From Vairimorpha necatrix (lineage: Eukaryota), in the NCBI GenBank assembly GCA_036630325.1, contig CP142729.1:372001-436000 (forward strand): a DNA stretch of 64,000 nucleotides. Direction: 5' to 3'. Position 1 is the stretch's first letter, and each line of letters begins with the position of its first letter. This document shows, in pieces, positions 4,338 to 36,310 of this stretch. Position numbers and translations under genes: made by a program. Under the pieces are notes generated by a model that worked only from the letters and a program-made list of their open reading frames with translations, searched no databases and was not told where the DNA came from.

Positions 4338-4465
4338 TGTCGTAGTTACTTACGCCTAAACCGAGCATTTATAATGCTTGGATATTTCTTTATATTTTTA
4401 TAATATTTTACCCCATCTTATGGAAGGAGAAAAGAAACAAATGAAAATAAATAATATTAATAACA
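4338..4465 (+). repeat. 5' LTR of element A (128 bp)
   Basis: TG...CA, followed by TGGCG, homologous to 9118-9228. Confidence 0.85.
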
Positions 4466-7400: not shown

Positions 7401-7933
7401 AAGCACTTGAAGAATTTATGAGTAAGTCCAATGAAAAGCCAGATAGAATATTATCAGATTGCGGACAAGAATTTTCAATTATAAAGGTGTCAGATTGGGC
7501 CCACAGGCTGGTATTAAATGGGACTTCTCGTCCCCATTCCATCATCAGACCACTGGAGCTGTTGAACGTGTGATCAAAACATTTATGAACAAGTTGAAAA
7601 AGTTCACACGTTTTGGAAAGAGACATTAGACAAAGCTTGTAGACGTTGCAACTTTAGTCGTAAATTTATCTCAAAACAGAGCTATTGGGCTTTACTGTCG
7701 TATATAAAAAGAGGAGATTGACAGAATTGAATATAGATAACCCCCTGAGTCAATCCAAAGTCTTAATTTCAATGATTTATCGGAAAAAAAATTTTAAGAG
7801 AATTTTAGAGAAATATAGGCAACATATCATAAAAGAAAAAAAACTAAAAGACGTTTATAAGAAAGGAGAGAATGAGATGGCAGTATTCAGACCGACTCAA
7901 AACAATTAAATTAAATTGGACGCTAGGATTTAG

Positions 7934-9005: not shown

Positions 9006-9117
9006 GGATTTAGAGTATTGCAGAGACTTTCGGAAGACGCATACTTGATCTTCAATGGAAAGTCAAAACTAAGAACCATTAAAGCTCATTTAAAGGCTGT
9101 TATTAGAGTTGAGGGGA

Positions 9118-9228
9118 TGTCGTAGTTATTTACGCTTAAACCGAACATTTATAATGCTTGAATTTTTCCTATAATATTTTAACTACATCTTATGGAACAA
9201 GGAAACCGAATAAAACATTTCAATAACA
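9118..9228 (+). repeat. 3' LTR of element A (111 bp)
   Basis: Follows the PPT, TG...CA, homologous to 4338-4465 with indels. Confidence 0.85.
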
Positions 9229-10222: not shown

Positions 10223-12535
10223 TTAAATCTTATTTTTTATAGCTTTTATCAAATCATATTGTATTTTATTTAAAAATTCTAATAAAACAAATATTAAATC
10301 TTTTTCGCTTATCAGTAATTGAAGTCTAAGCAACTTTTTTTGGCATAAAGGTTTAATGTTCGTTGGATTTTTCCTCTCATTCTCAGACAATATTTCTAAT
10401 ATCTCCATATATTCTCTATTTATATATATTCTTATTGATTCTTTTATTTTACGACATAAATATTTATAGAATCCTTTTAAATCATCATTTTTATCCTTTT
10501 TCAAAGGTTTAATATTTTCAATAGATATTTTTTCTAAAATCCCTTGAGCCAAAATAGAATATATGAATAATTTTTCGATCTTATTTATTTCCACATTTTG
10601 TAACCCATCATTGTCTTTGATCATTACGTCCTGATTATCAAAAATAGTTTCAATTCCCATATATAAAGCTTTATCTTTCATATAACTTGCTGCAAATATA
10701 AATATATCATGATTTATGTTGTCAAGAATAATTTTTATATCATATTTGAAATCAATTATATCATTCTTGGTCAAAGTAGAATCACTCATTTTTTGTTTAA
10801 TGTTGTTAATTATAGGTTCTAACAAAGCCAAAACGTATTTTTTGGAATTTTTATGCAATCTTTCGCTTAAAAATACACTTATTATTTTACTATTATTTAT
10901 TACTTCATTACTATTTAATCCTAAATTAAAAATAACATCATCTTTGTTAACGAATAACATATCTTCTAGATTATAACAAACGTTAGATTTGTTTTCTGCA
11001 AACAATGATGTCATTTTGATCAATTCCCCAGAAACAATTCTTTTATATTTTTCAATCCTGTTAAGACCATAAACTGTTATTCCTGACATTATTTTTGTTA
11101 AATCTATATTATTTTCTTTATAGAACATCTTAGGATTCATCGTAATCTTTAACCCCATTAAAAATTTTTTTTTGTTCATTTGGCTTCCTATTATTTTTAA
11201 AGTTCCAAATATACTGTCACATTTAAATTTATTTTCGTTTATAAACTTTTCGGCTTCTAATAATAAGCAAAATTTAATTAAATATTCTGCTGATAAGTTT
11301 TTTTGATATGTTTTTTCTATTACTATATTTATAAGCTCAGTTTTTCTAGTATCGCCTAATTCATCGCTCTCAATTATTTTTTTAAATTCGGCTTTATTTA
11401 TTATTTGCATATTCAACAAAAGATGTGCAAAAATTATACACAATGCTGTGTCTGTTTTATTTAATAGTCTTTCTAGAAGAAATTTTACTTTATCTTCAGT
11501 TTTCATTAACCTATAAAACATTTCAACACATAAATTATTTTCATATTTATTTTTCATTGTAGAAGAAAGTTTTTTAAAAAAATATTTAAACTCTGATAAA
11601 CATTTCTTGCTGATAATAATTCCATCGTTGAGATTAACAGAATTTGTCTCCAAAAAATATTTGTTCGAATCATAATCTTGTGTGAATTTTATCTTATCTT
11701 TATTTATCTCGATTTTAAATTTACTATCTAATATAATTTCTGTAAAACTGCAAGCTTCCATTTTAGGTTGAACGTAGTTTTGTAAATCATCAATATAAAC
11801 GTTCTTATATAATTCACAATAATATTTACTGATTTTTAAGTCAAAGTCATTGTCATATATCGTTGTTATTTCATGACTTAACGGGAATTTTTCTATATTA
11901 ATTTCTTTTATATCAATTTCAAATATATGATACATATCATATAAACATATAGAAAAAATTATAAATCGTGATTTGTTACGTTTTACGCATACCAAATTAA
12001 TATGTTGAAAATTTCGATCACCATAAGATATATTATTTTTTAAATTGAATAAAATATTTTCAATTAATATATTTTCTTCAATAATTTGTTCATAAACTAT
12101 ATCGTGTTTCACTCTAATTCCTTTTCTCAAAGTTTTCAAATGACTAATTATTTTACTATATAAAGGATGATAAATAGCTTGTAGTGGATTGTATATTATT
12201 ATTAAAGATTGCATATATATTTTTTCGTAATTTTCTAAAATTTTTTTTTCTAATTCTTCGATAATAGTCGTAGTAGATTTTTTAAAACAATTAACTTTCA
12301 GTTTTTTTATTAAATTTTCTTTCGGAAAAAAATTACGAGATAAAATTTCAAGATCCGAAATTAGCTCATTACTATCAGTATTAAACCATAATCTAAATAT
12401 TGTGCAAACGTTTTTATCAATTAAGTAATAGTCGTTGTTTTTTACTTTGTTTTTTATTACAGTATTAAGATTATTATATATCTTATAAAATCCTTGTATA
12501 AATTGGATAAGATTTAATACTTTAACAATTTTCAT
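10223..12535 (-). CDS. Orphan predicted secreted protein, ~770 aa, family L770 member 1
   Basis: Long ORF. The first ATG at 12535 is preceded by CCCCAA and gives MKIVKVLNLIQFIQG. Clear paralog of 32209-34515 and distant paralog of 52426-54732. Confidence 0.88.
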   Translation of the reverse strand: MKIVKVLNLIQFIQGFYKIYNNLNTVIKNKVKNNDYYLIDKNVCTIFRLWFNTDSNELISDLEILSRNFFPKENLIKKLKVNCFKKSTTTIIEELEKKILENYEKIYMQSLIIIYNPLQAIYHPLYSKIISHLKTLRKGIRVKHDIVYEQIIEENILIENILFNLKNNISYGDRNFQHINLVCVKRNKSRFIIFSICLYDMYHIFEIDIKEINIEKFPLSHEITTIYDNDFDLKISKYYCELYKNVYIDDLQNYVQPKMEACSFTEIILDSKFKIEINKDKIKFTQDYDSNKYFLETNSVNLNDGIIISKKCLSEFKYFFKKLSSTMKNKYENNLCVEMFYRLMKTEDKVKFLLERLLNKTDTALCIIFAHLLLNMQIINKAEFKKIIESDELGDTRKTELINIVIEKTYQKNLSAEYLIKFCLLLEAEKFINENKFKCDSIFGTLKIIGSQMNKKKFLMGLKITMNPKMFYKENNIDLTKIMSGITVYGLNRIEKYKRIVSGELIKMTSLFAENKSNVCYNLEDMLFVNKDDVIFNLGLNSNEVINNSKIISVFLSERLHKNSKKYVLALLEPIINNIKQKMSDSTLTKNDIIDFKYDIKIILDNINHDIFIFAASYMKDKALYMGIETIFDNQDVMIKDNDGLQNVEINKIEKLFIYSILAQGILEKISIENIKPLKKDKNDDLKGFYKYLCRKIKESIRIYINREYMEILEILSENERKNPTNIKPLCQKKLLRLQLLISEKDLIFVLLEFLNKIQYDLIKAIKNKI

Positions 12536-14146
12536 TTGGGGTAAAAAAAAGTACTTTGATATATTTATTTTATGATTGTTTAGCAATTTTTTCAGTTCAG
12601 TTATTAAACTCTTTTTAATTTTTAACTAATATTTTGTATTTGGGCGTCAACTGTCAAAATCGTTGCTAACAATGATGATTTTGTTATTTGATAGATGTCA
12701 TGTAAATAGTTGTACATTAAAAATTTTTATTTTCAAAGATCAAAATAATTATAAAGATTCAAAAATTGATCCAAACGTTTAATAATAATGAAAAGAGTTA
12801 AAATAAATTTATTTAATATTTTTTTAAGTACCAAAAAGCATAAGTTTTATTGTTAATTAAAATTATAGTTAATTTTGCAATGTTTATTTCTAAGAAAAAA
12901 TTTTTATAAAGTTTAAGAGATAGTAGAAATTAAATTTAAAAATTTTATATTAGTGCATACATTTTACGAAACCATGTTTTAAAAATCTAAATAAAATATT
13001 TAAAACTTCTTAGTATCATCAGAAAATCAAAAAAACCTTATAAAAATTTATTATAACATTAAGTATATTGATTTTATTATATTTGTTTTTGATATTAAAA
13101 ACATAATTTATAGATTAAAAATCAATTCAACATTGTTTTAAATTCTTTAACATATTTTTATTTCTACCAACAAAGTATTTTGTGTATAATTTGTAAATTT
13201 CTTTATTAAATTTAATTATAAAAACTAGTTTGCTATCTGATGTAAACAACTATGAAAAATTGTATAATCTTGTATTCACATTTATCTAAAATAACCTGAA
13301 ATAATACAATCGACGTGGTAGAACGATTCGAACAGAATTTTTCTCGTTTCATATCATATCTCCAACACAATTAAAGCCTGTCCTTAACACACAAACATAT
13401 AGCTAATTTTTGCGGCAGTTTATATTTTATAATTTGTTTTAATAATACCTTTGCAAATCTTAGAGTTAAACTTTACAGATTAAAAAATAAATGTCAACGT
13501 TTTTAATATCCTACACCATAAAGATAAATTAAAGTAAAAAATCAATCTTTTTTATGTTATTAATTAAAAACATACGCCCTTCTATGAAAAATCTGCATTT
13601 AATATTTAATTTAAATATGTCGATTTAAATATTTTACATTGAATACGTCATATGTAGAATTTTTTTTGAAAAAAGATAAACAGGTTTTAAATACCGTAGT
13701 AATATATTTTATTATTTCAATATCTATTTCATTTAAGTTGATTTAGAGGTAGTAACATTTATAATAAATATATATAATTCTTGATAAAATGTAAAAAACA
13801 ATCATCATTGACACACACAAACTTGATATGATTGGCCAATAATTTTTATTTTATGCTTGATGTCGACTAAATTTTTCTCTGTATAGAAAATCATTATGTC
13901 ATATGCATATTGGTACATAAATTCTTTTAAAATTTGTTTTGGTTAACATTTGTAAGTTTAAATCAAAGAAATCCGCATATTACTAAAAATAATAATCATG
14001 TTAAGCACACATGTTAAGGGATGCCAAAAAAAGATTTAAAAGTTGAGACATGAACGACTAGTCAAAAATATGTTATTTTTAGGAGATAATTGTCATGTTT
14101 TCGTTGGACATACCCATTTTAAGAATAATTTTCAAAATAGTTTTTA

Positions 14147-15707: not shown

Positions 15708-15756
15708 TGTGATATATTTGTATAATTTCTATTCCCCATTATGATAAATAAAGACA
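15708..15756 (+). repeat. 5' LTR of element B (49 bp)
   Basis: TGTGATATATTTGTATAATTTCTATTCCCCATTATGATAAATAAAGACA. Confidence 0.92.
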
Positions 15757-18500
15757 TGGGGCGATACCGAATCGTCAGTTTACAAGTGTGGACTGTGGTC
15801 TAGAGGCCAAAAAGTTATTAAAAAAAGTTAGAAGAATAATGTATAGGTTGGAGATGGAGGAAATAGAAATCAGTTTGTGGAAGCAGAGAATATTTATGGA
15901 AGGAAGTGAAGAAATAAAAAATTTCATGGTAGAAAGAATTAGTAAAGAGGACGAATATTATAAAATAATTGAGAAATTAGAGGAGGAAATATGTAGAGAA
16001 GAAAGAATTAAAAAAGAAGAAGAAAATAGGAGAGAACTTATGGAGGTCATAGCTGAGAATGTTAGAGAAACTGTGAGAAAAGAAATTCAAGAGAAAGATT
16101 TAGTTTTAAGGAATACAGTACAAGAAATAAGAAATAATAGGAATTGTTTTAATTGTGGTAAATTTGGCCATATGGCTAGGAACTGCTATGTAGGAAGGAA
16201 CAATAATCAGGAAAATAATAAAAAGTTTAATAAGTACTTAAATTTAGACGAAAACCAAAGTTGTAGTAGCAGTAATGATAATAAAGAATATAAACCAAGT
16301 GGAAAGACAAAACGAGTTAAGTTAAAGGAATGTAATAATAGTGATAGACACATAAAGAAAGAATATATGCGAGCAATAAAGAGACGAAAAGAAGATTACT
16401 GAAGAGGGAATTTACGTTGGAAGATCTCAAAGCGGAATATGAAGAAGTTTTTAAACAAGGAAATGAGGTTATAAGTTATTGTACATTAGAGAAGTGTAAG
16501 ATAGATACTCCAGAGGGTAAGAAGATAGTCAGAAAGGGACAGACGATCCCGCAGGCTTTGATCAAACAGACTGAGGAATATATTAATGATTTAGAAAATA
16601 GAAAAATTATAAGAAGATCGTCTTCGGAATGGCGAAACCCAATAAGAGCGATACTTAAACCAAGTGGTGAAGTAAGACTAGTTAGTAATTTTATAGGGTT
16701 GAATGATTTAGTCGAGAAAGACCCGTATGAGCTAACGAATATGAGAGAAATAATAAGAGCTACGCAAGGGTCGATAATATTTACTGTTGTTGATTGCAAA
16801 GAAGTATTTTACCATTTTGAAATCGAAGAAAAAGATAAACATAAGACGGCGTTTGAATTTAATAAAAAAGTTTACGAATGGAATAGTATGGTGATGGGAT
16901 ACAAAAATTCCCCACAGATACTACAGAGAACGATGAATATGATTTTTGAAGATTTGCGAGGAAATGGTGTTGAGGTATACATGGACGATATAGTAATACA
17001 TGCCAACAATAAACGTAAACACGATGAATTAGTAATAGAGGTTTTAGAAAGAATTAAGAGAAATAAAATGAAATTCAATATTGGGAAAATACAGTTTAGA
17101 CAAGCGGAAGTAAAATTATTAGGTGTGACGCTGAATGGAATAGACATGACGGCCGACGAAATAAAGAAAAATGAAGCCTTGGAGTATCCGGATCCAAAAA
17201 CTTTGACGGAATTGAGGAGGTTTCTAGGATTGACTGGATGGTTCAGACCATTTATAAAAGATTATGGCGGGCTGACGTTGAAAATGACAGATAGTTTGAA
17301 GAAAAATGGCAATTCGTGGAAATTTACGGAAGAGATGAAAGAGGAATTTACTAAAATGAAAAATGTGTTAAGAAATATGGGAAGACTAAGATTACCGGAC
17401 TATAATAAGGAGTTCATACTAAGAACAGACGCTAGCAATTTGAGATTGGGTGCGGTGTTACTTCAAAGAATGAGAATGGGGAATGGGTTGCTATACAATG
17501 GGCATCTAAAAAGCTAACTCCTACCGAAATAAGATATGGAATATCAGAAAAGGAAATGCTTGCGATATATTGGGGCATTGATAAATTTAAATACGAGTTA
17601 AGAGGTAGGAAATTCAAGATAGAAACGGATCACAAAGCACTGGTGGAGATGAGAAATAAACCGTTTTTCAATAATAACAGAATAAATCGCTTAATCTAGA
17701 AGATACAGGAATATGATTTTATCGTGGAATATAAAAAACCTGATGAGATGGTGGTAGCAGATGCGTTGAGTCGAATAAATATGGAAGAGGATATTAAAGA
17801 AATGAAAAATAAAGAGCGAACAATCAAGCAAACAGAAGGTAAATGGAAAGCACATGTTTCTTCCGAGAATGGAAAGCAATATTGGCAATTTGACTCAGGA
17901 CGTAAAGTTGAAATACCACCTGAGAATATAAGGAGACAATTAATCCAAGAATATCATGAAAAAGTAGGCCACAGATGCATGACAAGTGTTTATTATGCAA
18001 TGAGAGAAGAATACTATTGGCCAGGAGTAAAGAAAGAAATAACCGATGTTATAAAACAGTGTCAGAAATGTCAGATATATAACAGGAAAAATATGGGTGG
18101 TTGTGAATTTGTAGATACGTCGAGATACTTAGAGAAGGTTGCATTAGATTTGATAGACTTTAGAAATGAGAAGAAATATGTTTTAGTTGCTATCGATTAT
18201 TTTACACGTAGAGTATGGGGAGTAGTTATAAATAACAAGTCAAATAATAATGTTGTTGGATTTTTGAAAAGATTATGTGAGCAAGGGAAGAAACCAGAAG
18301 AAATTATTACAGATAACGGGAAAGAGTTAATTAACGTGGAATTTAGAAAATTTTGTAGAGATCTCGATATAATACACCGACAAGTAAGTATAGAAGCGCA
18401 TAGAAGTAACGGAAGAGTAGAGCGTGTTATAGGAACTTTGAGAGAAAGTATTTTAAAGTCGGATGCGAAAACTTTTGAGGGTAAAGTGTATAAAAGTATC
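15756..18500 (+). pseudogene. gag-RT-RNaseH-integrase pseudogene of element B (5' part)
   Basis: ORF fragments 15788-16402, 16417-17517 and 17724-18500 are colinear with the 1006-aa ORF at 28918-31938 and broken by frameshifts. Confidence 0.88.
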
Positions 18501-18711
18501 TGTTACCGGATATATCAGATCCGCTTGTTATAAGGCTGAAGTGCCTTCCCTAACATTATTGTTTGTTTGTTTGTTTACTGTCATCGCTTGTCATGTAAAC
18601 AAACAAACAAATAAAAGTATTTAAGGAAGACCCCTAAAATACGTATGCCAAATAAACAAGTTACTTCTAAAAGCAAGTCTTTTCCTTCCACCAGCTCCTT
18701 CGCTGGTAACA
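18501..18711 (+). repeat. 5' LTR of element C
   Basis: TGTTACC...GGTAACA terminal inverted ends, direct repeat of 22332-22542. Confidence 0.93.
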
Positions 18712-18749
18712 TTGGCGACAACGGGATTAAAACCAACACACTAGAAGCG

Positions 18750-21700
18750 ATGATGGAAAAACTGGGAGTTACAACTAGCAGAATGTTGTATTTTCAAGGA
18801 GAAATTGGGAAGGATGCCTTGATATGGCTAACCCAATTCAGTTACCTTGAAGGAGAGTGGAAGGATCAGAAGCTGATGAAGTACACGAAGAAGTACTTAA
18901 GAGATTCGGCTCTGCTATGGTACGAGGCTATGATTGAAGATGAGGTAGAAACTTACACAGACTTTAAACAGAGATTCCTTAACAAGTATGGGAAATGAAG
19001 AGCTCAGAGAAGGGAGCAACTCTGTAAAAACGTTCTATAAGAAACTGTATACTGGACCGAAGTCGCAGAACTTAGAAGACTTTGTTTACGAATTGATCAA
19101 GCTAAACAAAAAGGCTAAAATTGACGTTACTGAGATAATTGAAGAATTATCTAGGTACTTCCCACTATCATTAAAAGAAAGAGTGGAGGAAGCCACATCG
19201 TGGAATGATCTATTAAAGGTCTACAGCAACAACATAAAACTAATCGAGACAGTAAGAACAAGAAACGAAAACTCAAAGCAAAAGGAGAGGAGTTCCGAGT
19301 CTGATATGAAAAAGAAAACTAATAACACTAAGAGAAAGTTAGAATGTTACAAGTGTGGTGGAGAGCACCTATTTAGAGACTGCAAACACGAAGGAAAGAA
19401 AGTGTTGTCTATGAATGCAGTCCCGTCGTCCTCGGATAATAACTTTAATATAGTAGAAGGCTTACATCGAGGAGAGAGAGTAAAAATACTGTTTGATTCA
19501 GGAGCGTAAAATTCATTCATTAATCATGATCTTGCCAGAAGAGAAAAGCTCATACCCGTTCATGGAGTGAACCTAAGAGCTGCCTTTGCTAGCACTGAGA
19601 TCAGAAACTCAGTGGAGACTAAAATAAAAATTAATGATGATGACTACAGAACAGCGTTATTTGTAGTGGAAGACCTTGAAGGTGATATAATATTAGGGAG
19701 AGACTTTATGAAGAAACATAATGTTCAAATAGACTATGGAAGTCAGTCAGTTAAAATCGATAATAAAACTATTACGTGCTATAAACTTTTTAATTTAGAA
19801 AAGACACCGTCAAAGTTATCAAAACCTGATCTATCTTCGAATTATAATGTTCATAAATTGATTAATGACTACAAAAGGAAGCTGGAAACCGCAAAAGGAA
19901 AGAAAAAGTTAGTGGAACATAAAATCGAACTGAGTGAACGGAAGGTAATATGCAAGCGAAACTACCCACTGAGCCTCGATAAAAGAAAGTTTATCCAAGA
20001 GGAGGTTGAGAGGTTACTAAAGTCGAACGTGATAGAAGAAAGCACAAGCGTTTGGAATGCCCCAACGGTTGTCGCTCCGAAAAGAAATGGTGAATATAGG
20101 CTATGTATAGACTTTAGAGAGCTTAATGATATTACAGTGAAAGAATTATGTCAGCCACCGCTGATTGAAGAATGCTTAACATATCTAAGCGGTGCAAGAA
20201 TATTCTCTCAACTAGACCTAGAGAAGGGGTACTACCAGATACCAATGGAAGAGACATCTAAGAAGTACACATCGTTTATGACACCTTCAGGCAAATTCTA
20301 ATTTAAGAGAATGCCGTTTGGTCTCACTAATGCTCCAGCTACCTTTCAGAGCCTAATGTACAAGATATTCAGGAAACAGCTAAATAGGACCACAGTCGTT
20401 TATTTAGACGACACATTCGTATACTCAAAGACTATCGAGGAGCATTATGGGCACTTAAAAGAAGTATTAGAAATTCTAGCAGAGAACGGGCTTAAGGTAA
20501 ACTTTGATAAAAGCAACTTCATGACAAAGTGATATCAATATTTTGGGATACAGTATAAAATCCGGAAAGCTCACTCCAGATAAATCTCGTATGGGGCCTT
20601 TAGAAAAAGAATTTGAAATCAAGAATGTAAAACAATTACACTCTATAATCGGACTTCTGGGATTCTATCGGATGTTTATAAACAACTTTAGTAGAAAGGC
20701 GCTAGAAATACATCGAACAATAAACGAAAAGCTTCAAATTACAGAGAAAGTGCGGAATGACGTTGAATCATTGAGGAAAGAACTTATTTCCACGCCATGG
20801 TTGGCACTCCCAGACTTAACGCTGTCGTTTATCATTGAAGCAGATGCATCAGAAGAATGTATAGGAGGTGCTTTGAAACAGGTACAAGACGGAGAAGAAG
20901 TAACGATTCGTTGTGCTAGCCGAAAGCTTAATAAGCATGAAAAGAACTACACGACGCTGGAGAAAGAAGCCTTAGCTATAATATTTTGCGTAAAAACCTT
21001 TAAAATGTATCTGCACGCCGAGGTCCTGATAAGAAGCGACCACAACCCTCTACAGTGGCTGTATAAAGTTAAGAACCCCCAGGGCCTTAATTGCTCGATG
21101 GCTTATGTTCTTAAGCGATTTAAGATTCAAAATAGAATATAAGGAGGGAAAATCTCATACCCTTCCAGACTGCTTGTCAAGGGTTTACGCGTCGAGTATG
21201 GATATCGTAAGTTCCGACACGAAATTAACAAAAGACGATATGATTAGAGAAAATCATCATTACATAGGACACGGAGGTGCGGAGGCCACAATGCTCTTCT
21301 TAAAATCGCAGAACCTAGCTAATGATATCAGCCCTAAAGATATCAGGAGAGTAATAAACGGTTGTCAGACGTGTATAGAGCACAAGAAACCTAGGAAAAA
21401 GTTTGTAACCTTCCCCACAAAACTCGAGTCAGCCTTTAAAATGATTGGAATCGATTGTATAGGGCCTCTACCCAAATGTTCCTCCGGAAAAAGATTTATC
21501 ATCGTAGCAACGGACTACATGACTAAATGGGTAGAAGCCAAGGCGGTAAAACATAAGTCTGCGTTTGAAATAGCAAAATTTATTATTGAGGATATTTTCA
21601 GCCGGCATGGAACGGTAGACGTAATAAGGAGTGACCAAGGGCTAGAGTTCACAAATCAGATTGTTAGGAAGATCTCGGAACTCTTCGGCGCTCGGTTTAG

Positions 21701-22384
21701 ATATTCCAGTCCGTATCACCCCAATCCAATGGACTTGTAGAGAGGACCAATCAAAGCCTGATTGTAAAACTTGCAAAGGCGGTAACAGATTATCAAAATC
21801 AGTGGGATAGAATACTACCACTGATCCTTATGCAGTATAGGCTGTCCCCAATCGGTAAACTAAAGATGTCCCCCTTTGAAATGCTTTATGGGAGGAAAGG
21901 CGCATTGCCTAAGATAATCAAAGAACTTCCAAGTGACTTTGAAATGCTATTTATAGATCCAGCAGAATACCTCAATGAGCGTACTACAGTAACTAATGAG
22001 ATTAGAGAAGTTATATGTGATATTAATAATAGTGAGATTAAGAAGCATAAACGACAGATGAAAGGGAAACTGATTGCTGACGACGTAAAAGAAGGGTCTC
22101 TTGTCTTTATCAAAAACAGGAACATGTCTAGTAAACTAGACAAGAAATATATAGGACCGTATATCGTTTCAAAGAACAAGACTAAAGGCACTTATAAAGT
22201 AAAAAGCCTAGAGAATGGAATAGAACATCTTATAAATCGATGTGACTTCGTAGTGTATGAAAAAGACGAAAAAATGTTAGAAGATACTACCTCTTCCCTG
22301 GAAGTGAAGCCTTGTCTTAAGGAGGGGAGAGTGTTACCGGATATATCAGATCCGCTTGTTATAAGGCTGAAGTGCCTTCTCTAA
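18750..22384 (+). pseudogene. gag-pol pseudogene of element C
   Basis: Gag (YLRDSALLWY), CYKCGGEHLFRDC, protease LFDSGA + DIILGRDF, RT (YRLCIDFRELN, MPFGL, YLDD), RNase H (EADAS), integrase (DCIGP, SDQG, GPY). At least three in-frame stops and three frameshifts. Confidence 0.9.
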
Positions 22385-22542
22385 CATTATTGTTTGTTTG
22401 TTTGTTTACTGTCATCGCTTGTCATGTAAACAAACAAACAAATAAAAGTATTTAAGGAAGACCCCTAAAATACGTATGCCAAATAAACAAGTTACTTCTA
22501 AAAGCAAGTCTTCTCCCACCACCAGCTCCTTCGCTGGTAACA
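22332..22542 (+). repeat. 3' LTR of element C
   Basis: Direct repeat of 18501-18711 after the PPT. Confidence 0.93.
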
Positions 22543-22920
22543 GTATCGATATATATAATCAGAGCTATCATACAGGAATATAATGTACACCAATAGAAGC
22601 GACTGAAGATAAAACTGGAGACGTAATGCTTGAAAATAGCCCTATAGGGAAATATTGTAATAGGTTTGGAAAGGGAAAGATCGAAAAATTTAGTAAAGGT
22701 CAATTGGTAAGAATAGCTAAACGAGAAAATTTGGCAGGTGTTAATAAGTATGAAAAAGGAAGATTTTTGGATACAGGAAAAATTGTTGAAAAGTGTGGAA
22801 AGGACTCTTATATTGTAAAACTTAGTAATGGTAGGCTTGTGAAGAAGAGACATTATGATCTGAAGGGTATGCTTGGGGTAGATGTGAAAATTAGATGAGA
22901 CTAACCGTCTTGAGGGGGGA

Positions 22921-22969
22921 TGTGATATATTTGTATAATTTCTATCCCCCATTATGATAAATAAAGACA
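22921..22969 (+). repeat. 3' LTR of element B (49 bp)
   Basis: Direct repeat of 15708-15756 immediately after GAGGGGGGA and followed by TSD TAAAA. Confidence 0.92.
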
Positions 22970-26732: not shown

Positions 26733-28889
26733 GACATTTGAACTATAAATTCCGTAAATAAATAAACCCATGTTTTCTAATAACAGTTTTGCGTACAACA
26801 GTAATAAATATAAATGCCATTTTTTGCGGGCATAAATCTATAATACGTTGAAATGAAAATTTGACTGATTTAAAATGTTAGATTAATAAAATCAATAAAG
26901 AATTTTAACTTTACAATATACAAGTTAAATAATTTAAAAATATCAAAAGAACTTAAAACTTATTTTGTAGTGAATATTTTTTTAAGAGTTTGATATATTG
27001 AAATGAATAAATGTTAAAAAAAGGAATATACCCAGAAGTAGACTTTAGAAATATAAAGTGTTAAAAGCATCATAAATAAAAAATTCTTATTTGGCAAGTA
27101 ATATAGAAATCATGATTCCTCTTAACATTAAATACATTGGTATCTTCTTTTTTAACTTTTGATGTGTAAAATGCTATTTTGAAAAAATATCTTTCAAAAA
27201 AAAACTAGAACTTGCAAACTTATTCTCTAAGAACGTTTATATGTGTTCATATTAACACATATGTCCAATTTCAGATCGAACGTAGCAAAATGCAAAATGT
27301 ATTAAAGGTTTAACACATTTTCGAATGCTATTTTTACATATTTTTGCAAAAAAATTAGTGGGAATATGCATATATTTATATAATATGAAAATTGAATGAT
27401 GTAGTCATTCAAGAATACGTTTTTATTATAATCAATTTTGTTTCTTTCATCTACATAGTCTTAAGGGCACATTTCCTTTTATGTTGGTGAGCGGGAAACT
27501 ATTGTACATTTTCGCTTAATTAACAATGTGTTGAAAAAGAGGAAAATACATATAGAATAGTATTCTTGAGTCTCCAGGGTGTTCAAAGTACCACTAAAGA
27601 TCCGCTCATTGGCATATTATATTTTAGATGGTCATTGCATTTACATGATTCATATTTTTTCTTTTATGATGCTGAAAGACATTAAAAAATTATAAAATCT
27701 AAAACTTGTACTTTTTAATTGAATTGTTGCCATTAATAAAATCGGCAACAACTCAAGGATACATCTTATGATGGTGCACTGATAAAAAAGAGCAATAATT
27801 TAATTGGTCTTATTTATAAACAAAGTAACTAATTTTTAATATAAAATAAGGTAGACGGCGCAGATTTTTTAATGTTGATATGATTATCATTACATGTTTA
27901 TAAATATCTCAATAGTCCATACTATGGTCCAATTGCATGTAAAAAAAAATATATGCCATACGTAATCCTTTTGTAGCTTTGTTTTACACAATATTATCGC
28001 ATATAGCATAAAATTTGCAATAATGTATCTGCAAATATAATTTCGAGACTTTCCAGTTACAGGATAAAAGCGAGTTTAAATTCTATTATATACAATGAGT
28101 AAATTACGAACAAATAACGTAAAACATTCTTTTTCAGACGAGGGGGCATTTCTACACAATCATATATGGGCTGTAGTCACTATTAAAGAAATATGATAGC
28201 TTTGTTGAAACATAAATTTTGCATTTCATTACAAATCTTTTTATTCTTTGCGAAAACCAGATATAAAGGCAGAAAATACTTATTTGCATCATTTTAGATT
28301 ATAATTAATCTATTTTGCAATGAAAGTATATTGTATATATATTTATTTTTAATTTTTAAATGGATTTAGAAAAGATGTTTTTTTTTCTAAAGATTGATTA
28401 TTTACGCGAAATAATAAATTTTAAAAGATTATAATATTTTTTTTTGTGAGTAAATTAAGATGACGATTCCAGAGTTACTAGGAAATAGCACATATTTTGT
28501 TAATTTTATGTATAATAAATGTTCGGTTGTACGTATTGCATTTATTTATGTTATTTCACTAACATAACCTATTTAATATTTAAAAAAACAATGTACCTAA
28601 GGCAATGAAGTAAGAGAGGTGCAGACAAAATTTATAAGAAGAATTAGAAGGTCTAGTATTATACTTTGTAATTCGACTTCAAATTTTCTAATATACTCGA
28701 GAAACCTCCGGAAATATATATTTGATTTATATAGTATCCGAGAGCAATAATAAATGCGTAATAAAAATTCAAATAGAAGTTTAAAATATATTAGAAGCCT
28801 TATGGGCTAGTTAAATGGTATATATAGCTCAAAATAATATACCATTATTATTTTTGTTTAACATTATGAGTAACAGGGCCGTTATTACA

Positions 28890-28927
28890 TGTAGGGTTTA
28901 GAACCCTTAATAAATAAATGGTTAACA
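28890..28927 (+). repeat. 5' LTR of element D (38 bp)
   Basis: TGTAGGGTTTAGAACCCTTAATAAATAAATGGTTAACA. Confidence 0.95.
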
Positions 28928-31900
28928 TGGCGAACACAAGGATGAACAGGGAAACAAGAGAGTCCCGTAGTCAAGAGGCTAGAACATTAGAGAAAGAGGC
29001 AATTAGGATAGATAAGAGACTAAAGTTAATATTGAAAGTTGAGAAAGTTGAGTGGAAAGATGTTATGGATTTGGCATCTGCGAACTTGCAGGATTATATT
29101 TTTGAAAATTTTTGTGACGGAAGGAGCAGTTGGGAGGAAATTTATAAAGGCTTACAAAAAGGAGCAGAATTTGAGAGAGAGTCAGAAGAAAGACAAGAAA
29201 TGATTAAAGAGATTATGGATAAAGTGTTGAAAGAGTTTAGGGAAGAAAGAAAAGAAAATCTTAGGATGTATAGGAAAAGAAGAGAAATCAGAGAAACTAC
29301 AAAATGTTTTATATGTAAGAAAGAAGGGCATTACGCTAGAGAATGTCATGAAAGTGTAGCTGGTAGGGAAAAATATAAAATTAAAAAGGAACAAGTTTTA
29401 CAGAAAGAACCAATTATCAACAATGAAGGGAAAAGATGTAAAACAGTAAATAAGTTAGAAAATTTAATTGAAAAGTATCCGGAAGTTTTTAAAGAATCAG
29501 AAGAAAAGATAAAATATCTCACAGGAGAGAAGTGTCCAATAAATACTAAGCAAGGTGAAAAGGTTGTGAAAAGAGGGCAGAATGTGCCATACTACCTTAG
29601 GGTGAAATTTGAGGAGTACTTGAATAAGTTGGAAAATAGAGGGGTTATAAGACGTTCCAAAAGTGAGTGGAGGAGTCCAATAAGAGCACTTGAAAAACCA
29701 AATGGGGACGTAAGATTGGTAAGCAATTTGATGGCGTTAAACGATTTGGTTGACAAGGACCCGTACTCACTACCGTTAATTAAGGATATTATGAGAGCCA
29801 CACAGGGGTCAAAAGTATTTACGGTTATCGACTTAAAAGAAGGGTTTTATCATATTGAGATTGAGGAGCACCATAAGCACAAAACAGCATTTGAAGTGAA
29901 TGGTCGAGTATACGAATGGAATAGTATGGTTATGGGGTTTAAGAATTCGCCTCATATAATGCAGAGAGTAATGAACAGAGTTTTAGATGAATTCAGAGGT
30001 AAAGGCGTGGAAGTATATATGGATGATATAGTTATTCATGGTAAAGACGTAAGAGTGCATGACGAGTTACTAGAGAAGGTAATTAAAAAGTTTAAAGAGT
30101 GTGGGTTGAGAATAAACCAAACAAAGATACAATACAAAAAAGATGAGGTGATGTTGCTGGGAGTAACAATTAATGGGGAGGTCATGGGACCGAATGAGAT
30201 TAAAAAGCAGGAGACATTGGAATATAGAAAACCTGAGAATGTTAGAGAGTTAAGAAGATTTTTAGGACTAACTGGTTGGTTTAGAGACTTTATTCCCAAC
30301 TATGCGTATAGAACAGTAAGGCTTACTGAGGCTTTAAAGAAAGATGTTAAGTGGAATTGGACGGAGGATATGGAAAGAGCTTTTGAGGATATGAAGCAAG
30401 GCTTGAGAGATATGAAAAAGTTGAAGATTCCGGACGGAAAAAAGCTATTTAGAGTAAGAACTGATGCGTGTGATACGGGGATCGGAGCAATTCTATTACA
30501 AGAAAATAAAGAGGGTGAGTGGATTCCGATACAATGGGCATCGAAAATGTTGACTCCTACCGAGCGAAGATATACGATAAGTGAGAAGGAGATGTTGGCG
30601 GTGTTTTTTGGAATAAAGAAGTTTGAAAGTGATTTGAGAGGAAGGAAATTTCATTTGATGACGGATCATAAAGCATTAGCAGAGATCAGAAATAAGCCAT
30701 ACTTCAATAATAACAGAATAAACAGATGGGTAGAACAGATACAAGAGTTTGACTTTACAATAGAATATGTGAAAGGGGAGTTGATGACAGATGCAGATGC
30801 GTTAAGCAGGCAGTATGATCAGGTAGAAGTTTCGTATGAACAAAAAGAAAAGGACAACAAGAGAAAAGAAGTGATCGAAAAACAAATTTTGGGAAAAAAG
30901 CAGAAACATATTAAAGAAAAGGACGGTAAACAGTATTGGGAATTTTCCACAGGTGAGGTGAAAGAGATATTGAGCCTAGATAGTAGAGAACATGAAATAA
31001 CAAGAGTACATGAGGAGTTAAACCATAGAGGTGTCAAAGGCACTTATTATAACATTAAACAAAGATGGTATTGGCCTGGTATGAAAGATCATATTAATAA
31101 GGTAATTAAGAATTGTGAAATATGTGGGATTAACAATAGGAAAAACACAGGAGGATGTGATTTCGTAGTAACTAGAAAGAAATTGGAGAAAGTGGCGTTG
31201 GATTTAATGGACATAGGTGGAGAGAATAGGTATGTGTTACTGGGTATTGATTACTTTACTAGAAGGTTGTGGGGTTCGAATTTGAGATGTAAAGAGAGTA
31301 GTGAAGTTATAGAGGTATTACAAAAGTGGATAAGGGAAGATGGATTTCCAGAGGAATATGTGACAGACAACGGAAAAGAGTTTGTAAGTAATAGATTTAA
31401 AGAATGGTGTAGTATTAATGATATTAAACATAGGAAAGTGGGTTTAGAAGCTCATAGGAGTAATGGTAGAATCGAGAGATGCATCAGAACTATAAGAGAG
31501 ACATTGATAAAGCAAAATGATGGGAATATTTCTGAAAAGATAGAAAGAGCAATCAAAGGATATAATAATACACTACATACAGCAATAAAATGTACGCCGA
31601 TGGAAGCGTGGAGAGATCAAACTGCTGAAGTTATAATTGAAAATGATGAAAATGGAAAATATGCTGGTCGGTTCAAGAGAAGACACAGAGAGACATTTAC
31701 AGTAGGCCAAGAGGTAAGAATCGCTAGGAGAGAAAATTTAGGTACACGTGCGAAAACAGACAAGGGAAGATTCACGGGTCGCGGAAGGATCGTAGCTATA
31801 AGTGAAAATGATTCATATATTGTGAGACTACTGGATGGTAAAATTGTTAAAAAGAGGCATTATGATTTGAAAGAGATAAGGAAGAGTTGTTTAGAAGATG

Positions 31901-31938
31901 GAGAGACTACCCGTCTGGAGGGGGGATGTAGGGTTTAG
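28918..31938 (+). CDS. Single polyprotein: vestigial Gag + CCHC knuckle + RT + RNase H + integrase (no protease), 1006 aa (or 1003 aa from ATG 28927)
   Basis: CFICKKEGHYAREC, IDLKEGFYH, MVMGFKNSP, VYMDD, VRTDACDTGIGAIL, SEKEML, TDHKAL, HEELNH..CEIC, LDL, TDNGKEF, NGRIER. No D[ST]G protease motif between the knuckle and RT. Confidence 0.95.
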   Translation: MVNMANTRMNRETRESRSQEARTLEKEAIRIDKRLKLILKVEKVEWKDVMDLASANLQDYIFENFCDGRSSWEEIYKGLQKGAEFERESEERQEMIKEIMDKVLKEFREERKENLRMYRKRREIRETTKCFICKKEGHYARECHESVAGREKYKIKKEQVLQKEPIINNEGKRCKTVNKLENLIEKYPEVFKESEEKIKYLTGEKCPINTKQGEKVVKRGQNVPYYLRVKFEEYLNKLENRGVIRRSKSEWRSPIRALEKPNGDVRLVSNLMALNDLVDKDPYSLPLIKDIMRATQGSKVFTVIDLKEGFYHIEIEEHHKHKTAFEVNGRVYEWNSMVMGFKNSPHIMQRVMNRVLDEFRGKGVEVYMDDIVIHGKDVRVHDELLEKVIKKFKECGLRINQTKIQYKKDEVMLLGVTINGEVMGPNEIKKQETLEYRKPENVRELRRFLGLTGWFRDFIPNYAYRTVRLTEALKKDVKWNWTEDMERAFEDMKQGLRDMKKLKIPDGKKLFRVRTDACDTGIGAILLQENKEGEWIPIQWASKMLTPTERRYTISEKEMLAVFFGIKKFESDLRGRKFHLMTDHKALAEIRNKPYFNNNRINRWVEQIQEFDFTIEYVKGELMTDADALSRQYDQVEVSYEQKEKDNKRKEVIEKQILGKKQKHIKEKDGKQYWEFSTGEVKEILSLDSREHEITRVHEELNHRGVKGTYYNIKQRWYWPGMKDHINKVIKNCEICGINNRKNTGGCDFVVTRKKLEKVALDLMDIGGENRYVLLGIDYFTRRLWGSNLRCKESSEVIEVLQKWIREDGFPEEYVTDNGKEFVSNRFKEWCSINDIKHRKVGLEAHRSNGRIERCIRTIRETLIKQNDGNISEKIERAIKGYNNTLHTAIKCTPMEAWRDQTAEVIIENDENGKYAGRFKRRHRETFTVGQEVRIARRENLGTRAKTDKGRFTGRGRIVAISENDSYIVRLLDGKIVKKRHYDLKEIRKSCLEDGETTRLEGGCRV

Positions 31939-31964
31939 AACCCTTAATAAATAAATGGTTAACA
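31927..31964 (+). repeat. 3' LTR of element D (38 bp)
   Basis: Identical to 28890-28927 and contains the ORF stop codon. Confidence 0.95.
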
Positions 31965-32208
31965 TTACATTTAAATTGTAATAAATAAGGTATTTTATGT
32001 ATTTATTATTAATACTCACAAGTACGGGAAGAATTCAAATACTGAACACAAAAACAATTAAATATTTAATTATATCAATTTTAGCTCTGACGTGTTATTA
32101 AAAATACATAAATATACAATTAAGCCATAAAGCCGAACTTCATCATGCGATGTATATTTTATGCATCAAATACATATGAATGGATTGCCAATTAATAAAT
32201 TTATTTGT

Positions 32209-34515
32209 TTAAACTTGTTCTTGACATTGCAATGAATTTATAAAATCATCATGTAATTTAGCATTTAAAACTTTAGGTAAAATAATATTTAAGTCATTTT
32301 CGTTCATAATTAGATGAAATATATGTAAAGTTTGTTGACAAAAAAGTTTGATACTTGATTGATTTTTTAACTCACATTCAAATAACATTAGGAAGTTTTT
32401 TGAATACTTTCTTTTAATACTGGTCTCTAAATCTTCATGTAATTTATCATGCAATTCTTTAAAGAAATTTTTTATGTCATCCTTTTTATTATTTTGTAAA
32501 AATCCAAAATCTTCAAGATACATTCTTTGTGTTATCTCTTCCGTTATGAGGTAATTTATGAAAAAAAAAGTTATTTCTTGTATTTCATCATTAAATTCAT
32601 AGCTGATGTTCTCAGAATATAATGTATTTCGAATTTTAATACATTTAGCATCTTTTTTTATTTTTTTTAAGGCTAAAATAAATGTCATTTTTCTAAAAGT
32701 TTCTAAAATATTTTTTATGCCATATTTAAAATCCTGTATATCACTTTTGTCAAATGTACTTGTACACATTTTTTGTCGAAAGTTCTTTATTGTAGGTTCT
32801 AAACATTTAAAAAAATATTTTTGTGCATCTAAGTGCAATTTTTCTGAAAGCGCTGTGTATATTATCTCGTTATTATTTGTTACTTTATCACTATTTAAAC
32901 CTAAAATAGTAATAATATCATATTTCATAAAATAAGTTATGTCGCCTAAATTGTTGCATCTATTTGCTATATTTTCAGTGAATAATGATATTATTTTGAT
33001 CAATTCCCCAGAAACAATTCTTTTATATTTTTCAATCCTGTTAAGACCATAAACTGCTATTCCTGACATTATTTTTGTTAAATCTATATTATTTTCTCTA
33101 TAGAGCTTCTTAGAATTCATCGTAATCTTTAACCCCCTTAAAATTTTTTTTTTGTTCATTTGGCTTCCTATTATTTTTAAAGTTCCAAATATACTGTCAC
33201 ATTTAAATTTATTTTCGTTTATAAACTTTTCGGCTTCTAATAATAAGCAAAATTTAATTAAATATTCTGCTGATAAATTTTTTTGATATGTTTTTTCTAT
33301 TACTATATTTATAAGCTCGGTTTTTCTAGTATCGCCTAATTCATCGCTCTCAATTATTTTTTTAAATTCGGCTTTATTTATTATTTGCATATTCAACAAA
33401 AGATGTGCAAAAATCATACTTAATGCTGTGTCTGTTTTATTTAATAGTCTTTCTAGAAGAAATTTTACCTTATCTTCAGTTTTTATTAACCTATAAAACA
33501 TTTCAACACATAAATTATTTTCATATTTATTTTTCATTGTAGAAGAAAGTTTTTTAAAAAAATATTTAAACTCTGATAAACATTTCTTGCTGATAATAAT
33601 TCCATCGTTGAGATTAACAGAATTTGTCTCCAAAAAATATTTGTTCGAATCATAATCTTGTGTGAATTTTACCTTATCTTTATTTATCTCGATTTTAAAT
33701 TTATTATCTAATAATGATTCTGTAAAACTGCAAACTTCCATTTTAGGTTGGGTGTAGTTTTGTAAATCATCAATATAAACGTTCTTATATAATTCACAAT
33801 AATAATTACTAATTTTTATGTCAAAGTCATTGTCATGTATCGTTGTTATTTCATGATTTAAAGGAAATTTTTCTATAATAATTTCTTTTATATCAATTTC
33901 AAATATATGATACATATCATGTGAACTTATGGAAAAAATTATACTTCGTGTTTTATTGTGTTTAGTACATGCTATACAGAGATTAGGAATTATACAATGG
34001 ATTTCCATCTTTAATGTCGAAACAATTCTGGCTAATAGTTCATTTTCATCGATAATGTGTTCATAAACTATGTCGTGTTTCACTTTAAATTCTTTTCTCA
34101 AAGTTTTAAAATATTTTAAATGATTAATTATTCTACTATATATAGGATGCTTACGGGCTTGTTTTTGATTATAAATTATTATTAAAGATTGCATATATTT
34201 TTTTTCGTATTTTTCTTTACATTTTTTTTCTAATTCTTCGACAATAGCTGTAGTAGATTTTTTATTACAGTTAATTTTCAGTGTTCTTATTAGATTTTCT
34301 TCCGTAAAAAAATTATGAAATATAATTTCTAAGTCTAAATTAAGCTCGCACTTATCAAAATCAAACCTTAAATTAAATGCCATAACACCTCTTTGATCGA
34401 TCGTAAAAAAATCATTATTCTGTATTTTATTCATTATTATAACATTAAGATTATCATAAATTTTTTGAAATCCATGTAAAAAAAGAATTGTTAAAAATAT
34501 TTTCAGCATTTTCAT
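32209..34515 (-). CDS. Orphan predicted secreted protein, ~768 aa, family L770 member 2
   Basis: The first ATG at 34515 is preceded by CCCTTA and gives MKMLKIFLTILFLHG. Paralog of 10223-12535. Confidence 0.88.
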   Translation of the reverse strand: MKMLKIFLTILFLHGFQKIYDNLNVIIMNKIQNNDFFTIDQRGVMAFNLRFDFDKCELNLDLEIIFHNFFTEENLIRTLKINCNKKSTTAIVEELEKKCKEKYEKKYMQSLIIIYNQKQARKHPIYSRIINHLKYFKTLRKEFKVKHDIVYEHIIDENELLARIVSTLKMEIHCIIPNLCIACTKHNKTRSIIFSISSHDMYHIFEIDIKEIIIEKFPLNHEITTIHDNDFDIKISNYYCELYKNVYIDDLQNYTQPKMEVCSFTESLLDNKFKIEINKDKVKFTQDYDSNKYFLETNSVNLNDGIIISKKCLSEFKYFFKKLSSTMKNKYENNLCVEMFYRLIKTEDKVKFLLERLLNKTDTALSMIFAHLLLNMQIINKAEFKKIIESDELGDTRKTELINIVIEKTYQKNLSAEYLIKFCLLLEAEKFINENKFKCDSIFGTLKIIGSQMNKKKILRGLKITMNSKKLYRENNIDLTKIMSGIAVYGLNRIEKYKRIVSGELIKIISLFTENIANRCNNLGDITYFMKYDIITILGLNSDKVTNNNEIIYTALSEKLHLDAQKYFFKCLEPTIKNFRQKMCTSTFDKSDIQDFKYGIKNILETFRKMTFILALKKIKKDAKCIKIRNTLYSENISYEFNDEIQEITFFFINYLITEEITQRMYLEDFGFLQNNKKDDIKNFFKELHDKLHEDLETSIKRKYSKNFLMLFECELKNQSSIKLFCQQTLHIFHLIMNENDLNIILPKVLNAKLHDDFINSLQCQEQV

Positions 34516-34571
34516 TAAGGGCAAAAATCTAATACTTAAATAGTAAAATTGATTATTTAGACATGTGCAAC

Positions 34572-34575
<4 letters not shown>

Positions 34576-34606
<31 letters not shown>
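34576..34606. repeat. (TA)15 microsatellite upstream of L770 member 2
   Basis: Direct reading. Confidence 0.9.
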
Positions 34607-34608
<2 letters not shown>

Positions 34609-35301: not shown

Positions 35302-36310
35302 GGCTAATGTCGGCTTTAGGAGAAAATTTTCGATATAGGGTTTTTTTTGCCCCTTTTTTCAAAAATGAAGGAGAAAATTCAAACAAGAGAGCAATTAGAA
35401 AACATATATAATGCATTAATAACCAAAAATAAAATAAAGAATTGTGAATTATGTGAACTCAGCTGATAATAAAGAATAAACAAAAACTTATTGGAAATGT
35501 AAATGGAGTACTTGTAAAAAAAACAGTTTCAATATGGAAAGGTACTTTATTTCAAGATTCTAGACTTAACCATATTACAGTATTACAAATACTTAATATG
35601 TGGATTCTAGGATATCCTCGAAAATCTATTTGTCAAATTTTGGGTTTATAGCGGAATCTGTGTCATTTATACTAAAAAGTTAAAAGAATTGGATATTTAT
35701 GAAAAATATTTATCTAGTATTGGCGTTATGGGCGGTGAAACACAGTAGTGGAAATCGATGAGACGAAGATTGTCAAGAATAAGAATATTAGAGGTAGAAT
35801 TGTGAAAAGTTTCTGGTGTTTTGGTATGGTCGAACGTACCATACACCGCCGAATTATATTTATATATATTAAGAAAAGAGACCAAATAACGCTAACTAAT
35901 CTTTTGTTAAAATATGTAGACAGAAATAGTATAATTTATAGCGATATGTGGAGAACCTACCGTAATTTAGGCTTAAAATTTAACCAACATCTAATGGTAA
36001 ATCATTCTCTACACTTTAGAGACCCACTTACTGGAGTTCATACCAATATCATAGAAGGTAATTGGCGATCTTTAAAAAAATCTATACCAAATAGAAATAG
36101 ATCAGTTCGGAGTGCGAAACTTTATTTATTCAGGTATATGCTTCAAAGAAATTCTTCTAGTTCCGTGTTTGAAGCATTAATAAATTTATTGTTTTATTTT
36201 TTATTTTTGTTTCTTCCTCCACATTCTTTCTCCTCCATTTTTGAAAAAAAGGGGCAAAAAAAACAAAAAACCCCTATATCGAAAATTTTCTCCTAAAGCC
36301 TACATTAGCC
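35302..36310 (+). mobile_element. Merlin DNA transposon (1009 bp), frameshifted transposase
   Basis: TIRs GGCTAATGT(C/A)GGCTTTAGGAGAAAATTTTCGATATAGGG. Perfect 8-bp TSD AATTTTTG (35294-35301 and 36311-36318). Confidence 0.93.
35365..36200 (+). pseudogene. Merlin transposase pseudogene
   Basis: C-terminal frame has VEIDETK, WCFGMVER, SDMWRTY, VNHS and HTNIIEGNW. The N-terminal part is broken by frameshifts. Confidence 0.88.

Follow-up and report, generated by a model that had tools for sequence, protein, structure and literature searches.

A protease-less, tiny-LTR variant of Ty3/gypsy retrotransposons in the microsporidian Vairimorpha necatrix

Microsporidia-specific groups of gypsy retrotransposons, which encode one polyprotein instead of gag plus pol, are described in the portion of Parisot et al. 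(2014; PMC4202319) drawn on here. 'Nearly all' elements of Nosema bombycis carry Gag, protease, reverse transcriptase (RT), RNase H (RH) and integrase (IN), according to an excerpt (PMC2474625) that paraphrases Xu et al. (2006), and an excerpt of a further paper places most reported long terminal repeat (LTR) retrotransposons above 4 kb (PMC3281118). Here we describe a 64,000-nucleotide stretch of the Vairimorpha necatrix genome (contig CP142729.1, positions 372,001 to 436,000 of the forward strand; hereafter the window), in which positions 28890-31964 are occupied by a complete LTR retrotransposon of 3,075 bp, element D. Element D belongs to a type that has been catalogued without being described, a variant of Ty3/gypsy with tiny LTRs and no protease.

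Element D resembles Ty3/gypsy elements (Metaviridae, e.g. Ty3) in its TG...CA LTRs, its 5-bp target-site duplication (TSD), a polypurine tract (PPT) by the 3' LTR, a CCHC zinc knuckle, the order RT-RNase H-integrase, an integrase with HHCC and DDE signatures, and a tree position inside gypsy. It differs from them in having no retropepsin, in a Gag portion of only ~128 aa ahead of the knuckle that is predicted to form one helical module rather than a two-lobed capsid, and in LTRs of 38 bp, both of which are overlapped by the open reading frame (ORF). Tf1 of fission yeast likewise expresses Gag and Pol as one ORF with no frameshift but, unlike element D, encodes and needs its protease. An element of similar build is listed for Anncaliia algerae: 'Aalg retro L' appears in Table S1 of PMC4202319 as complete, with a 50-bp LTR, an ORF at 32-3049 and a length of 3127 bp, and the same source gives 19-45 copies in three strains. 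In a comparison made only by eye, its consensus (PMC4202319) encodes a knuckle and has TGGCG after an opening TG...CA repeat, as does element D, although the two come from different species and are different family members. A count of the word 'protease' in PMC4202319 gave 0 for the main text and 0 for the supplement archive, and the tiny LTRs likewise pass without comment there. Our literature search did not find a protease-less microsporidian LTR retrotransposon described, with the proviso that exceptions in N. bombycis may have been noted earlier (Xu et al. 2006).

The boundaries of element D were read directly from its LTRs, TSD, PPT and ORF. An exact 40-nt repeat flanks the ORF and resolves into two 38-bp TG...CA LTRs of the same sequence (TGTAGGG...GTTAACA), the 5' LTR at 28890-28927 and the 3' LTR at 31927-31964, both on the + strand and both much shorter than LTRs usually are. 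Three exact copies of this repeat are present in the window, where 0 are expected by chance. Outside the LTRs stand the two copies of a 5-bp TSD, TTACA (28885-28889 and 31965-31969). The 5' LTR contains a CCC run, an AATAAA and the first in-frame ATG (28918), and a stretch resembling a primer-binding site (PBS), TGGCGAACACAAGG, lies immediately 3' of it (28928-28941, + strand); the last A of the LTR and the TG of this stretch make up a second in-frame ATG at 28927. At the other end, the PPT GGAGGGGGGA (31917-31926, + strand) adjoins the 3' LTR while still within coding sequence, which closes with a TAG stop inside that LTR, such that 3,021 of the 3,075 bp are coding. With its boundaries thus set by LTRs, TSD, PPT and an ORF overlapping both LTRs, features that the initial annotation did not recognize, element D is complete and has no room for a further gene.

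The single polyprotein ORF (28918-31938, + strand) runs uninterrupted for 1006 aa, corresponding to a calculated mass of ~118 kDa. It includes no gag/pol frameshift, as the initial annotation of this locus had held; the start given there, 28927, coincides with the second in-frame ATG, while the ORF itself opens at 28918. Along the + strand, the protein comprises an N-terminal helical module predicted by AlphaFold and read as a Gag remnant (28957-29298; aa 14-127), a single CCHC zinc knuckle of the nucleocapsid (NC) type (29302-29346; aa 129-143; Pfam zf-CCHC at 129-144), a lysine-rich linker of 36 aa occupying the protease position of canonical elements (29347-29454; aa 144-179), RT with its lead-in (29455-30357; aa 180-480; D305 and YMDD at 367-370; RVT_1 at 259-418, E 2e-31), RNase H (30358-30750; aa 481-611; D516, E556 and D583; RT_RNaseH, E 2.5e-30) and integrase (30985-31872; aa 690-985). 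The integrase is composed of an HHCC zinc domain, a D762/D817/E853 core and a beta-rich C-terminal domain, with Pfam matches to Integrase_H2C2 (690-741; E 2.6e-14) and rve (766-839; E 3e-10). The catalytic residues of RT, RNase H and integrase are all present. Spacing around the knuckle was close to that originally counted (~125 aa before it and ~35-40 aa from it to LIEKYPEVF): we measured ~126-129 residues before the knuckle and 36 aa between it and the RT lead-in, with LENLIEKYPEVF starting at aa 180 and LIEKYPEVF at aa 183.

The protease is truly missing from element D, a conclusion on which profile searches, a scan of the window, a homology boundary and structure prediction agree. At E<=1, Pfam recognized only zf-CCHC, RVT_1, RT_RNaseH, Integrase_H2C2 and rve in the polyprotein, with neither a retropepsin nor Retrotrans_gag. 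None of the motifs D[ST]G, [ILV][ILVM]G.[DN] or NPGP occurs in aa 1-260, in keeping with the earlier observation that D[ST]G and ILGxD-type motifs are absent. We then built a custom retropepsin hidden Markov model (HMM) from 31 gypsy protease segments of our homologue list and ran it with filters off. It gave no match at E<=10 to the element D polyprotein (P0001 in our homologue numbering). As a control, the same HMM reached E<=1e-3 in 24 of 42 non-training proteins outside the protease-less clade described below. Scanned in six frames, the window yielded matches in two other gypsy elements, element C (19510-20298, E 7e-8) and element A (5089-5358, E 0.031), and nothing on the + strand of 28890-31964.

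Comparison with a protease-bearing relative located the gap. The sister proteins P0046 and P0047, unlike element D, keep an aspartic protease (Pfam E 4.5e-4; custom HMM E 1e-21); P0046 has a Gag of ~190 aa and no knuckle. BLASTP aligned aa 180 of P0001 with aa 298 of P0046, just past the P0046 protease (199-287 by Pfam, 197-292 by the custom HMM), and collinearity of the two proteins, at 38% identity, extends from the RT lead-in as far as the C-terminus of the integrase. AlphaFold models of aa 1-186 and of the full-length protein (mean pLDDT 75.6, falling below 50 over aa 156-177) contained no beta-rich domain ahead of RT. Because retropepsin is a beta fold and the N-terminus is modeled as all-alpha, no retropepsin is present in the model. 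Together, these data bear out the proposal that the aspartic protease is missing and that no room is left for a domain of ~100 aa. The only long internal low-confidence stretches of the full-length model, aa 156-177 and 627-637, coincide with the NC-RT and RH-IN borders. Both are rich in lysine and glutamate, and neither contains a conserved motif among 21 aligned family members.

The absence extends well beyond this copy. About 47 relatives at >=40% identity, partial ones included, came up in a protein search; those of full length are mostly 950-1050 aa, and most relatives sit on contigs of 3.0-3.3 kb. The members with a species name belong to Nosema granulosis, V. necatrix and Enteropsectra breve, and identity within the clade falls to 45-55% across several genera. 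About 27 relatives of >=940 aa begin with M and keep the layout of element D. No precomputed protease family was assigned among the about 47 relatives, and at E<=10 the custom HMM had no match in 47 of 48 clade proteins (P0001-P0045 and P0048-P0050). The sole exception was P0014, with a single match of 20 residues at E 2.8. Pfam did recognize an aspartic protease in the nearest outgroups, P0046, P0047, P0051 and P0054. Both landmarks are present in 31 of the 47 clade proteins, and in these the knuckle lies 57-135 aa (median 75) from the RT landmark; linker length thus varies within the clade, and the single longest linker is a low-complexity insert.

Phylogenetic analysis grouped these proteins together. 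In a FastTree phylogeny of the RT-IN region (64 rows, after 11 short rows with missing landmarks were dropped), the protease-less rows formed one group of 36 with support 99 and with the protease-bearing P0046/P0047 as sister; the stray protease-less row, P0049, is N-terminally truncated. An IQ-TREE analysis of 36 chosen rows (RT+RH, LG+C20) placed 21 of 21 protease-less rows on one side of a branch with SH-aLRT 96. Both trees grouped the RT of element D inside gypsy elements and had P0046/P0047 as the branch closest to the clade. Judged from these sequences, the protease loss is clade-wide and old and is not the defect of one copy. The simplest reading would be that a single loss of retropepsin at the root of the lineage was followed by long diversification. 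Real absence of the protease had been the shared premise of three alternatives in the initial annotation (an unprocessed fusion, use of a host protease, or borrowing of Gag and protease in trans), offered there with no preference among them, and a single, old, clade-wide loss makes that premise stronger than it was stated. A basal pair, P0042 and P0044, has an N-terminus of ~245 aa with neither knuckle nor protease. The crown group may therefore have gained its short, knuckle-bearing N-terminus by later replacement and not by simple deletion.

What precedes the knuckle was more difficult to place. An AlphaFold model of aa 1-186, made with 12 family sequences, had a mean pLDDT of 79.6; averaged in blocks, pLDDT was roughly 84-97 for aa 21-140. 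Helices were predicted at 14-38, 46-52, 55-65 and 72-127, the last spanning 56 residues, followed by the knuckle, a helix at 144-161 and a region of low confidence. Among PDB sequences, the family profile matched HIV-1 NC (E ~1e-10), copia (2e-4), Ty3 Gag (0.01) and Arc (0.08), all of these matches being centered on the knuckle. Using the N-terminal family profile, A2, hhalign found no match to P0042 or P0046, and against 10 canonical gypsy Gag-Pol proteins it aligned the knuckle alone (26 columns, probability 88%). Searched against a representative library, A2 gave 8285 matches at E<=1e-3, mostly multi-knuckle proteins; the new family members among them were truncated ones only, which go from knuckle straight into RT. 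Pairwise BLAST of N-termini produced nothing below E 0.01.

Structural comparison was similarly sparing. Foldseek returned 0 matches to the N-terminal module at E<=1e-3 in PDB and 0 in BFVD. The best hits of a wide VIA-align search (Z 6.4) were generic helical hairpins, and the Arc C-lobe, at Z 5.1 (rmsd 3.0, 63 residues aligned), lies within noise. Language-model look-alikes of aa 1-128 were Gag-type clusters at 0.84-0.86, which we take as a lead only. Ty3 CA is roughly 200 aa, so the ~110 structured residues seen here are too few for two capsid lobes. The model therefore allows one capsid-like lobe at most, its last helix running into the knuckle, which may or may not descend from a capsid. 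Retropepsin and gag profiles together with structure prediction thus revealed neither a retropepsin nor a two-lobed capsid. The suggestion that most of the capsid had been lost holds insofar as no two-lobed capsid was seen, with a caveat on what is retained: as modeled with confidence, a Gag-like remnant is kept in the form of a small helical module.

The compact layout of element D, with LTRs of ~38-50 bp and an ORF starting at or in the 5' LTR, is a clade trait. A second copy of element D, on the - strand at 61308-64000, is cut by the window end (3' LTR 61308-61345). It is 99.6% identical to element D, differing by 9 substitutions and a 1-nt deletion that shifts the frame at aa 281. A related protease-less family is represented by D2 (15708-22969, + strand), a frameshifted element with ~50-56% aa identity to element D, 49-bp LTRs (15708-15756 and 22921-22969), the TSD TAAAA and the PPT GAGGGGGGA. 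D2 has no protease between knuckle and RT and is split by a nested, protease-bearing gypsy element (18501-22542). Metagenome locus L003 holds an element with 39-bp LTRs and the TSD TTATA, and single LTRs were read at L005 (38 bp), L004 (49 bp) and L002 (49 bp). Duplications of 5 bp were found in 3/3 elements with both ends (D, D2 and L003), and a purine-rich G run occupies the PPT position in D2, L003, L005 and L004. An AATAAA-like motif and a run of C occur in every LTR read, in agreement with the minimal signals given for microsporidia in the part of PMC2803860 used here, namely 5' UTRs (untranslated regions) of <7 nt, a CCC-like motif ahead of the start codon and AAUAAA.

Sequences next to the LTRs followed a pattern as well. 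TGG stands directly 3' of the LTR in 4/4 5' ends read (D, D2, L003 and the minus-strand element of L002), and the PBS-like stretches fall into three classes, TGGCGA..., TGGGGCG... and TGGCACCC... The sole tRNA of the window (Met, 1570-1644) does not match the PBS-like stretch of element D, and the fetched loci contain no tRNA. The nested element C has a PBS-like start, TGGCGACAACGGG, with TGGCGA in common with element D. Just 5' of the PPT, the nucleotide motif GAGACTnCCGTCT, which encodes an ETTRLEGG tail, is kept among members with only 50-67% protein identity (31899-31926 and 22895-22920 in the window; L003 ~3642-3662; L005 ~2699-2724). A hairpin considered at this motif was rejected, as the RNA folds no better than shuffled sequences (z 0.67, -1.32, 0.15 and 0.03).

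The surrounding window is AT-rich (G+C about 22-36% per 2 kb) and crowded with mobile elements, among them protease-bearing gypsy copies. Element A (~4338-9179, + strand) is an older copy whose LTR starts are 84% identical over 62 nt. It carries CLIDTGADG in an ORF at 5089-5361, has no Pfam match despite this LIDTGA motif, and is interrupted by an IS1595/Merlin-type transposase ORF (8080-8934, - strand). Element C, the gypsy element nested in D2 (18501-22542, + strand), has 211-bp LTRs that are ~97% identical, the TSD GTATC, KILFDSGA in an ORF at 18949-19509, and weak Pfam matches to Retrotrans_gag and aspartic protease. It is degenerate, with an in-frame stop directly after LFDSGA and several frame breaks. 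Both motifs, LIDTGA and LFDSGA, and Gag regions longer than that of element D are present in these two elements, as had been reported.

Other observations concern the wider setting. A fragment of an IS1595/Merlin-type transposase lies at 35739-36296 (+ strand; DDE_Tnp_IS1595, E 8e-16). Three paralogous ORFs of ~800 aa (10223-12625, 32209-34608 and 52426-54813, all on the - strand; 64% and ~28% identity) have no Pfam match and look like a host multigene family. At L002 (~1030-1090, - strand), a reversed family member abuts the RNase H coding region of another gypsy element, creating a chimeric 843-aa ORF. Contigs L005-L008, which hold retroelements of the clade, are filed under bacterial metagenome-assembled genomes (Clostridium sp., Turicibacter sp.), in what looks like eukaryotic contamination of bins. 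A scan of viral contigs detected no relative.

How might such an element work? On balance, we favor an autonomous, ultra-compact lineage whose polyprotein stays uncleaved, or is clipped incidentally at its two disordered linkers by proteases that the element does not encode. Element D is a complete, intact and recently copied member of a microsporidian Ty3/gypsy-derived lineage; it is probably active and still appears to be mobile. Transcription would start and end inside the 38-bp LTR, leaving an R region of only ~10-20 nt, and this short LTR would provide the minimal signals of microsporidia, namely a motif of the CCC type, an AAUAAA and a 5' UTR of very few nucleotides. The polyprotein would then bind its own encoding RNA via the knuckle and the long helix. 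Maturation by an element-encoded protease would not take place, and the tethered RT, RH and IN would work in a ribonucleoprotein (RNP) rather than in a matured capsid shell. Cleavage, if any, would be the incidental work of cellular proteases at the linkers aa 156-177 and 627-637. Finally, the integrase would insert the cDNA with a 5-bp duplication.

Several points weigh against this proposal. Protease-defective Ty1, Ty3 and retroviruses are defective for transposition or infection. Gag is normally needed in excess over Pol, and a single uncleaved fusion gives no such excess. With the protease-bearing gypsy elements A and C in the same window, a helper protease is in principle to be had, even if the two local copies are broken. 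The PBS of element D is also a putative one, labeled by position alone. The choice among uncleaved, helper-protease and host-protease models is an evolutionary argument only. That the clade has persisted in several microsporidian genera speaks against a defective copy and makes lasting dependence on the protease of one helper family less likely.

A more radical version of the uncleaved model is possible, if tentative: protease and capsid shell may both have been given up in favor of a cis-acting RNP of one uncleaved protein, LINE-like on an LTR/integrase chassis. LINE-type RNPs and DIRS/Ngaro elements carry out reverse transcription without retropepsin maturation, and in LINEs a nucleic-acid-binding protein acts on its own RNA. 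The analogy is functional only. DIRS, Ngaro and LINE elements rely on a tyrosine recombinase or on target-primed reverse transcription and lack a system of LTR, PBS, PPT and DDE integrase, whereas element D keeps the latter.

We consider it unlikely that the lineage instead depends on helpers, with cleavage and perhaps packaging performed by the protease and Gag of co-resident gypsy families such as A and C. Such a lineage would be autonomous for RT and IN and parasitic for maturation. Potential donors are indeed close by, since protease-bearing gypsy elements lie within the 64-kb window and one is nested inside D2, and a protease could reach the two linkers, which are predicted to be disordered. 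Borrowing of proteins is well known among non-autonomous LTR elements, TR-GAG being the example given in an excerpt of PMC4350172. However, the loss is old (45-55% identity, several genera), so cleavage sites would have to keep matching foreign proteases in many hosts, and the linkers are conserved neither in sequence nor in length. The local candidates C and A are degenerate while element D is intact. These points against a helper are not decisive.

It is doubtful to the same degree that a host protease has replaced the lost retropepsin and must cut the polyprotein at the NC-RT and RH-IN linkers. The model does place long low-confidence, lysine- and glutamate-rich stretches exactly at these two domain borders. 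Yet the 21 aligned members have no conserved linker motif in common, and flexible linkers would be no less expected if the fusion is never cut.

Decay is far less probable as a source of the missing protease. A dead or domesticated relic would suit the frameshifted second copy and the frameshifted, interrupted D2, but the 1006-aa ORF of element D itself is intact, as are its catalytic residues, its LTRs are identical, its TSD is perfect, it has a copy at 99.6% identity, and its layout is kept by about 27 relatives of >=940 aa and by an Anncaliia consensus with 19-45 copies (PMC4202319). Least probable of all, and largely refuted, is the reading that the first 230 aa conceal a strongly diverged protease or both lobes of a capsid: microsporidian Gag and protease are hard to detect, as the LIDTGA of element A illustrates, and the Gag-type look-alikes and the within-noise Arc C-lobe offer weak capsid leads, but the four-helix model is all-alpha, only 36 aa separate the knuckle from post-protease homology to P0046, profile comparisons align the knuckle alone, and the structured residues are too few for two lobes.

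The usual minimum LTR length in LTR finders is ~100 bp. Programs with such a minimum will miss elements of this clade, and classifiers that require a protease will call them incomplete. At 3.1 kb and with one ORF, element D is a convenient object for retrotransposition assays. Retropepsin maturation has been treated as a fixed step for LTR retrotransposons and retroviruses, and the protease-less clade is a natural experiment on its dispensability that also bears on the minimum size of a capsid protein and of an LTR. If the uncleaved RNP reading is true, 3,075 bp with 38-bp LTRs, and an R of ~10-20 nt, would represent a lower size limit for an autonomous LTR element.

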